A stretch of 64,000 nucleotides of DNA. Source: Escherichia coli (GTDB lineage: Bacteria; Pseudomonadota; Gammaproteobacteria; Enterobacterales; Enterobacteriaceae). A program made the translations under genes and the position numbers. The notes under the pieces are model-generated. The model had not been told where the DNA came from. It saw only the letters and a program-made list of their open reading frames with translations, and made no database searches. The stretch lies in NCBI RefSeq assembly GCF_003334815.1, contig NZ_QOWO01000003.1. One strand, given 5' to 3'. Position 1 is the stretch's first letter; each line of letters starts with the position of its first letter. This document shows positions 7,257 to 7,826 of this stretch, in pieces.

Positions 7257-7826
7257 GTGTGAACCCTCGCGATAATCCTATTTAAATTTTTGCTGAATAG
7301 ATCACAGTCACGTTCTGTTTTGTATGAACTGTTTTCAGAGCCTGACTAAATATCCGTTTGGTCGTTACCGGCTTTAGCAAATACCTCACAGTGAATATTG
7401 GCTGATTAAAGCAGCGGCAAATTTATGCACTGTGATAAGCGGCTTTTTCAGAGAGAAAGACTCTCTGGCGATGGGTTTATAGTTTGTACTGCGCAGATGT
7501 TAATGTTTTGTTTGCTGTTATCTTATTGATATTTATCGGTCTATTTTTTGTTCTCAGGGCAGATGTCATTAGGTTTATAGATTAATCTGATCTACCCATT
7601 TGTGGGTAAAAATACACATAATGCGGGTGACATAATAGTTAATTAACTTTTGTTAGCGTTTTGAAATTAAAAACACCGTTCACCTGAAGAGATATTAATT
7701 TTTAGCGATGATGGAGGGATAATTATATTTGATCTGGCACAAGTTTTACTGATGAAGGATGTAACTTGTGCCAGGGGTATTTTGCATTACGGTAATAATT
7801 ATTACTTACAGATAACCAGCGATCCG
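7257..7826 (-). promoter_or_regulatory. dcuB upstream regulatory region (long AT-rich leader/promoter; sites not mapped)
   Basis: 570 bp AT-rich non-coding stretch upstream of dcuB with no ORF of 60 aa or more. Confidence 0.5.

Follow-up and report, generated by a model that had tools for sequence, protein, structure and literature searches.

We analyzed the region between dcuR and dcuB in a 64-kb stretch of Escherichia coli DNA (64,000 nt of contig NZ_QOWO01000003.1, hereafter the window), which matches E. coli K-12 MG1655 with 100% identity over the region tested. The gap between the two genes (7257–7826, minus strand, 570 bp) consists of a known multi-regulator promoter, which occupies about one-third of it (7604–7826), and a 347-nt mRNA leader of dcuB, which occupies about two-thirds (7257–7603). 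Our reading, to which we assign a probability of roughly 0.6, is that the known FNR-, DcuR- and NarL-controlled promoter produces a leader with a module that sequesters the dcuB Shine-Dalgarno (SD) sequence, and that this sequestration is relieved by processing. The promoter elements, the transcription start site (TSS) and the hairpin of the module as a conserved RNA structure are documented in published data or in the results below.

According to Myers et al. (2013; PMC3688515), position 4347240 of U00096.2 carries an FNR 14-mer, TTGATCTGGCACAA, with a chromatin immunoprecipitation (ChIP)-seq peak, and the site is at −132.5 relative to the TSS. Window coordinates equal U00096.2 coordinates minus 4339511 or U00096.3 coordinates minus 4341488, and position −N from the dcuB ATG is window 7256+N; this conversion was verified on the reference bases at three published single nucleotide polymorphism (SNP) or insertion sequence (IS) positions. 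The published FNR site is thus window 7729–7742, the same site that was found by our motif scan, and it is conserved across genera. Because its center at 7735.5 is stated to be −132.5, the distal TSS, an A, falls at 7603 (minus strand), 6 nt downstream of a −10 hexamer TATTTT (7614–7609, minus strand). The hexamer lies within a block, TGTGTATTTTTA (7618–7607), that is invariant in all leaders, and the anaerobic σ70 ChIP peak at ∼4347120 (PMC3688515) corresponds to window ∼7609. With the TSS at 7603, the 5′ untranslated region (UTR) of dcuB is therefore 347 nt long (7257–7603, minus strand).

Within this leader we found a module composed of AA and a 9-mer, CCCAUCGCC (7467–7477, with the 9-mer at 7475–7467; minus strand), and, directly 3′ of the 9-mer, a hairpin, CAGAGAG-UCUUU-CUCUCUG (7449–7467, minus strand). 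The 9-mer is exact in 45 of 47 distinct leaders. The hairpin stem varies from genus to genus with pairing kept (CAGAGAG/CUCUCUG, CAGAGGG/CCCUCUG, GAGGA/UCCUC, GGAAGC/GCUUCC and CCGGAGA/UCUCCGG). In a covariation test on a 17-sequence alignment with 500 shuffles, both sides changed in 5 of the 7 pairs, giving 15 double-change cells compared with 5.6 in shuffles, and none of the 500 shuffles reached the observed value; 91.6% of the hairpin cells were paired, compared with at most 65.5% in any slid register. Over the hairpin and the long-range helix described below, G·U cells outnumbered A·C cells on the dcuB-sense strand (17 compared with 5), a sense-strand bias. A covariance model of the 9-mer and hairpin gave one match in each leader of the syntenic clade, including metagenome loci outside model building, one match in the 64-kb window and zero matches in ∼50 dcuB loci of genera without this synteny. 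From these alignments we regard the hairpin as a real, clade-specific conserved RNA structure. The module is absent from Rfam, where a search over 6800–8300 at E ≤ 10 returned only noise matches to eukaryotic or plastid models, and it appears to be undescribed.

The segment AACCC(A)UCGC (7477–7468), made up of the AA and most of the 9-mer, is complementary to GCGAGGGUU (7262–7270, minus strand), which lies ∼200 nt downstream and contains the SD sequence GAGGG (7268–7264, 7 nt from the AUG) with its flanks. The transcribed leader thus holds an SD-complementary segment, as do leaders that sequester the ribosome-binding site (RBS). The helix between the 9-mer and the SD is present in both the minimum free energy (MFE) and centroid structures of the E. 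coli leader with pair probabilities of ∼1.0. Of 18 species, 14 gave the same SD partner on MFE folding, despite the ∼200 nt that separate the two arms being for the most part impossible to align. The RNAalifold consensus returned this helix stacked on the hairpin, and 96.3% of it was paired compared with 26–56% in slid registers. Covariation is seen at two outer pairs (one is U-A in most genera and A-U in Escherichia; the other is G·U, A-U or C-G), giving 4 cells, a value reached by 3 of 500 shuffles; in E. whittamii and Escherichia sp. E1V33, A-U is replaced by C-G at one pair and G-C by G·U at another. The UCGCG on the 5′ side of the SD, for which ribosome binding has no need, is invariant. 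For an RNA with its 5′ end at −20, folding predicts a largely unpaired SD. Since the transcribed leader contains the covarying hairpin and is predicted to form a long-range helix with the SD, the suggestion of a long structured leader, made in a preliminary description of this DNA, holds.

Some observations count against such a reading. No variation is seen in seven of the nine long-range pairs, so that covariation is limited to the two outer ones, and the U-A/A-U switch represents a single evolutionary event that separates Escherichia from the rest. Folding energy alone was not significant, as the SD was paired at P ≥ 0.95 in 22% of shuffled leaders, and the helix formed in 49% of shuffled contexts. 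Loci of the S. enterica type have GAGGA and lose the terminal pair, and two Citrobacter strains with the 9-mer variants GCCAUCGCC or GCCAUCACC lose the predicted helix; neither change is compensated. In addition, the literature treats the 5′ end at −20 as a promoter start. The long-range helix is well supported as a prediction, though unproven, and because its covariation is limited to two outer pairs, occlusion of the RBS by the helix is something that we infer rather than observe.

A second 5′ end of dcuB mRNA maps at −19/−20 (7275–7276, minus strand; “P1” of Golby 1998). It was found by primer extension, according to the citation of Golby 1998 in a later paper, and was found again by DMTSS in that later paper (PMC2760140). 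The alignment contained no conserved −10 or −35 element upstream of this end, and other genera have TTGACTGG there; σ70 occupancy is 330 bp away. All known regulator sites serve the distal start. The context of the −20 end is GG|AUUAUCG in E. coli and GG|UUU in other genera, which we take to match the RN|WUU preference of RNase E. For these reasons we judge the −20 end more likely to be a processing site than a promoter. The preliminary description had expected its view to fail if transcription started immediately upstream of dcuB and conserved blocks were absent elsewhere; a 5′ end does map 19–20 nt upstream of the ATG (PMC2760140), whereas strongly conserved blocks are found elsewhere in the gap, so that only half of this condition applies. 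Its interpretation was partly right: dense regulation and a long structured leader are supported, and a small RNA is not.

Taken together, these data suggest the following sequence of events. FNR and DcuR, with NarL-P absent, would fire the distal promoter, with its weak −10 TATTTT, from the start at 7603, and NarL bound over +1 would repress it by occlusion. The nascent 347-nt leader would fold such that the anti-SD, stacked on the hairpin, sequesters the SD, and pairing of the 9-mer arm with the SD region is predicted to keep translation of the full-length mRNA low. The most likely route to relief would be an endonucleolytic, RNase E-like cut at −20 (GG|AUU), which would sever the SD from the anti-SD and yield a short translatable mRNA, the one that primer extension detects. 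As an alternative to cleavage, a trans-acting factor on the 9-mer could open the helix. We infer that translation is switched on by removal or opening of the helix and that −20 marks a processing step. The leader would then be of the RBS-sequestering type, a known class, and the element itself is probably undescribed.

DcuB is the main anaerobic C4-dicarboxylate/succinate antiporter and a co-sensor that tunes DcuS, and it is required for gut colonization by commensal and pathogenic E. coli and by Salmonella. The control of dcuB known to us is all transcriptional. If the proposed mechanism is correct, a leader element that hides the RBS would add a post-transcriptional layer to this control and would explain why a distal DcuR-dependent promoter exists alongside a 5′ end at −20. 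It would also mean that adaptive insertions in the gap either rewire the core promoter or part the anti-SD from the SD. The SD sequestration hypothesis can be tested directly with a few point mutants.

E. coli in the mouse gut repeatedly gains mutations in the gap that raise anaerobic dcuB expression (PMC5094792, PMC4674774). According to the supplement of PMC5094792, an adaptive A→T SNP lies at −354 (window 7610) and IS2 insertions lie at −359 (window 7615) and −338 (window 7594). The SNP turns TATTTT into TATTAT, a −10 up-mutation; the first insertion is just upstream of the −10 hexamer and the second is inside the NarL site. The adaptive changes thus cluster on the core promoter, for which they provide independent support from genetics, and none of those mapped is near the proximal 5′ end. 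An IS5 insertion at −118/−123 (PMC5094792 supplement) falls in the leader between the anti-SD and the SD; this single, low-frequency allele fits an inhibitory leader. Separately, a gallium-resistance evolution line carried a low-frequency T→A change at −322 (window 7578; PMC6928379), which falls in a non-conserved part of the leader at position +26.

The same observations bear on the other explanations of the gap. One is that the region is purely transcriptional, with dcuB expressed mainly from the −20 start and the leader blocks acting as DNA sites (CRP binding, or looping between distal DcuR and FNR) without any RNA function. This view accounts readily for a −19/−20 end that was mapped twice (PMC2760140, citing Golby 1998). 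It would also give a role to block D (7257–7316, minus strand), a strongly conserved segment upstream of the start codon (..AACAGAACrTGrCTGTGATCyATTyA..) that includes the CRP-like TGTGATCTATTCAGCA with its conserved TGTGA half-site at 7306–7291 and in which RNAalifold found a 3-bp stem only, and to a CRP palindrome in the Salmonella and Citrobacter leaders. CRP control of dcuB is known and was reportedly described by Golby and colleagues in 1998. The purely transcriptional view is difficult to reconcile, however, with the lack of a conserved −10 or −35 upstream of −20, where other genera have TTGACTGG, with a σ70 peak at ∼7609 rather than at ∼7285, and with adaptive mutations (the −10 up-mutation and the IS2 insertions) that strike the distal promoter. 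Moreover, pairing in the hairpin is kept while its sequence changes, including G·U pairs on the sense strand, a pattern that DNA-binding proteins do not select. We consider a region without RNA function unlikely.

A somewhat different explanation, which seems rather unlikely to us, accepts the RNA element and takes the complementarity to the SD as coincidental, the 9-mer and hairpin being a docking site for a trans-acting factor such as a small RNA (sRNA; for example, FnrS), an RNA-binding protein or an RNase. The 9-mer is indeed conserved more strictly than pairing demands, lineages with weakened pairing keep most of it, and nt 21–28 of FnrS are a perfect complement of CCCAUCGC, a match found in 5 of 5000 shuffles. 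On the other hand, RNAalifold and the folds of individual species both choose the SD as partner, the outer long-range pairs covary and there is no variation in the UCGCG 5′ of GAGGG, which ribosome binding can do without. Over the whole leader, a match to one 8-mer or another is seen for 55% of shuffled FnrS sequences, and in the literature searched FnrS and dcuB were linked by co-mention only. An independent gene within the gap, whether for a small RNA or for a small protein, is extremely improbable. There is a 30-codon ATG open reading frame (ORF) at 7569–7477 in E. coli K-12, and an ORF of 84–110 codons, annotated as a hypothetical protein, in the Salmonella and Citrobacter leaders. The first is missing in E. 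albertii and E. whittamii, and the longest stop-free run in Escherichia leaders, 46 codons, is no longer than expected (P > 0.5); the second has no codon-position bias (13, 15 and 16 variable sites at the three positions; synonymous to nonsynonymous changes, 432:1232). For a small RNA, which the preliminary description had allowed for, we found neither an Rfam match beyond noise at E ≤ 10 nor a promoter-plus-terminator pair, and the conservation of the gap is accounted for by the promoter and the leader.

If a trans-acting factor does open the SD-sequestering helix, FnrS is a candidate. This sRNA, which is induced by FNR, was identified by Rfam RF01796 (134.8 bits) between zntB and dbpA. Its nt 21–28, GCGAUGGG, are perfectly complementary to CCCAUCGC (7475–7468), so that even the nucleotide left as a bulge by the cis helix is paired, and 6 of these 8 nt lie in the conserved apical loop of FnrS. 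GCGAUGGG is present in just 5 of 5000 shuffled FnrS sequences, and the isolated duplex of FnrS with CCCAUCGC has an energy of −16.0 kcal/mol compared with −13.4 kcal/mol for the cis helix. Pairing was judged by k-mer and local duplex analysis, as whole-molecule duplexfold is meaningless at these lengths. In this model, which we regard as a long shot, dcuB translation would be gated by the anti-SD helix and the apical loop of FnrS would open it. If true, FNR would activate the transcription of dcuB and, via FnrS, its translation in a coherent feed-forward loop, and dcuB would be the first positive FnrS target. A second FnrS match, AAAAAGCCG (7448–7440, just 3′ of the hairpin), to FnrS nt 111–119 (the 3′ arm of the terminator and the U-tail), is probably due to chance because it is not conserved in other genera.

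The locus is the same as the E. coli K-12 dcuB-fumB promoter (Golby 1998; Abo-Amer 2004; Janausch 2004; Myers 2013), for which activation by FNR and DcuR, repression by NarL, a distal promoter that responds to DcuR and the proximal −20 end have all been published. Our coordinates for the FNR site, the TSS and σ70 agree with PMC3688515, and that for the −20 end agrees with PMC2760140. The difference is that the two 5′ ends are two promoters in the published accounts and a primary and a processed end in ours. In the literature searched, we found no description of the 347-nt dcuB leader with a conserved RNA structure or an anti-SD. The proposed element resembles the rpoS leader, which is also long, folds a distant upstream segment onto the SD region and can be activated by molecules that bind the upstream arm. 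The resemblance is one of mechanism and not of shared ancestry: the rpoS leader is opened by DsrA, RprA and ArcZ, whereas for dcuB there is a candidate sRNA by complementarity only, and the dcuB helix, unlike that of rpoS, has just 9 bp and one bulge and stacks on a covarying hairpin of its own. With mRNAs activated by processing, in which RNase E or RNase III removes the leader, dcuB shares a 5′ end just 5′ of the SD arm, a GG|AUU context and a predicted free SD, although RNase-dependent cleavage at −20 of dcuB is putative. Like the cis-regulatory families in Rfam (riboswitches, leaders and thermometers) it has a structured element in the 5′ UTR, but it matched none of these families at E ≤ 10 beyond noise.

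The FNR, DcuR and NarL architecture of the dcuB promoter is already known. Upstream of the −10 hexamer we found a near-invariant 45-bp block, TGTTTTTAATTTCAAAACGCTAACAAAAGTTAATTAACTATTATG (7631–7675, minus strand; −28 to −72 from the TSS), in the syntenic loci. DcuR, a CitB-family regulator, binds AT-rich sites with tandem (T/A)(A/T)(T/C)(A/T)AA repeats that border the core promoter on its upstream side, and the 45-bp block, which abuts the −35 position and contains TTTTAA, TTCAAA, AACAAA and AATTAA, is by its sequence a candidate DcuR-binding region. In 2004, Abo-Amer and colleagues reportedly described a new +1 that responds to DcuR, with the DcuR footprint lying 27 bp upstream of it; in the same year, Janausch and colleagues reportedly placed the footprint at −359 to −400 from the proximal start. 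We take these positions to be internally consistent with the 45-bp block as the putative DcuR site.

A NarL/NarP 7-2-7 site, TACCCATTTGTGGGTA (7593–7608), spans −5 to +11. It consists of inverted TACYYMT heptamers with 2-bp spacing, as a NarL/NarP operator does, and matches at 15 of 16 positions (1 mismatch); the same scan gave 10 matches in the window compared with 3.0 expected. Its position is partly conserved, with related sequence at the same place in Citrobacter and Trabulsiella, and a site over +1 would be compatible with repression by occlusion. The site centered at −132.5 is the sole conserved, ChIP-supported FNR site. A class II layout, with TTGATnnnnATCAA near −41.5, was not observed: no FNR-like 14-mer is present there, and the position falls inside the putative DcuR block. 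A second FNR-like match at 7526–7539 was rejected, as it is downstream of the TSS and unconserved. For CRP (TGTGAnnnnnnTCACA at −41.5, −61.5 or similar), the E. coli gap contained no site with two or fewer mismatches; CRP-like counts across the window were at chance (198 compared with 230 expected), which makes the scan uninformative, and the best conserved CRP-like half-site (7306–7291) is at about +300. The dense regulatory input that had been anticipated is borne out by the published FNR and σ70 occupancy, the NarL site over +1 and the near-invariant 45-bp block, and was already known.

A scan of the gap for consensus σ70 promoters and terminators returned nothing, the dcuB promoter being too weak for the σ70 threshold of the scan. 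No intrinsic terminator or attenuator was found in the gap, and the conserved hairpin of the leader is followed by GAAAAA on the sense strand. Further upstream, a 14-bp AT-rich palindrome, GTAATAATTATTAC (7792–7805), lies ∼20 bp after the dcuR stop codon, at −189 to −202 from the TSS, and is conserved in all five genera. A perfect 12-nt inverted repeat with a 17-nt spacer, CTGGCACAAGTT and AACTTGTGCCAG (7734–7745 and 7763–7774), is present in Escherichia only. Its downstream arm overlaps the FNR site, and the repeat, which lacks a U-run after it, could be either a 3′ stem-loop of the dcuSR mRNA or a half-site of FNR that was duplicated.

The gap is embedded in the minus-strand order dcuS (8543–10174), dcuR (7827–8546, including the stop codon), gap, dcuB (5916–7256) and fumB (4192–5838), and the coordinates given for it in the preliminary description (7257–7826) were exact. 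That description had called it an unusually long, AT-rich non-coding region, and all three attributes were confirmed. The RefSeq annotation has no feature inside the 570 bp, and the largest ORF touching them in any frame is 37 amino acids. The GC fraction is 0.363 in the gap and 0.507 in the whole window (36% compared with 51%), and only 0.7% of the 570-bp windows in the 64 kb are equally AT-rich. In the MG1655 record, the 50 kb around the gap contain 47 inter-feature junctions with a median length of ∼100 bp; the gap is the longest of them, followed by junctions of 394, 364, 336 and 324 bp. On these figures the long, AT-rich gap is real and not due to chance.

A long gap of 552–910 bp is kept in 19 of 19 loci that retain the dcuSR-dcuB-fumB order, in Escherichia, Salmonella, Citrobacter, Trabulsiella and Intestinirhabdus. 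When 20 orthologous gaps were aligned, a few sharply conserved blocks stood out from AT-rich DNA that was otherwise unalignable. In Klebsiella, Raoultella, Proteus, Serratia, Pectobacterium, Dickeya, Brenneria and others (loci L028–L081), DcuB is 87–95% identical, dcuSR is not adjacent and the promoter and leader elements are all absent. Searches with four motifs and the covariance model gave zero matches to the promoter and leader elements upstream of dcuB in Klebsiella, Raoultella, Proteus, Serratia, Pectobacterium and others. The whole control region is, as far as these comparisons reach, specific to the Escherichia-Salmonella-Citrobacter clade.

The leaders of Salmonella and Citrobacter are longer by 130–170 nt. 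In Citrobacter, Salmonella and Intestinirhabdus (e.g. L008), the leader has an extra segment of ∼120–170 nt that has no counterpart in window 7480–7560. This segment carries a perfect CRP palindrome, TGTGATCGTGATCACA (with one mismatch in Salmonella), and a hairpin, GTAGCA-N10-TGCTAC, that holds the start codon of the 84–110-codon ORF. The extra palindrome and hairpin are absent in Escherichia, C. amalonaticus (L023) and some others; because the segment is missing in these, the leader must have been remodeled by large indels.

Salmonella and Citrobacter share the frame of the 84–110-codon ATG ORF, which runs across the 9-mer and hairpin (..SHRLRILSS..) and ends 50–100 nt beyond them; it was present in Salmonella leaders L006, L007, L087, L093, L094 and L104 and in Citrobacter leaders L008–L017, L022, L024, L027, L086, L092, L095, L100, L101 and L103. 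It stays open more than expected from shuffles (P = 0.003–0.04 per lineage), shows no purifying selection and is absent in Escherichia; annotation pipelines label it “hypothetical/cytoplasmic protein”. A protein-coding reading was rejected because it has no codon-position signal. In these two genera, ribosomes translating across the anti-SD could free the SD of dcuB. In E. coli, the stop codon of the 30-codon ATG ORF (7477–7569, minus strand) abuts the 9-mer, and unmasking coupled to this upstream ORF was rejected because it is found in E. coli only and is unconserved within Escherichia.

Elsewhere in the leader, a 12-nt, 92% inverted repeat (7386–7397 and 7424–7435) forms a hairpin in the E. 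coli MFE structure; it is kept in E. albertii through an A-U to G·U change and is unalignable beyond Escherichia. Outside the dcu locus, the 64-kb window also carries frdABCD (about 37520–40830) and aspA-dcuA (about 23984–26839), which are further members of the FNR/DcuR fumarate-respiration regulon.

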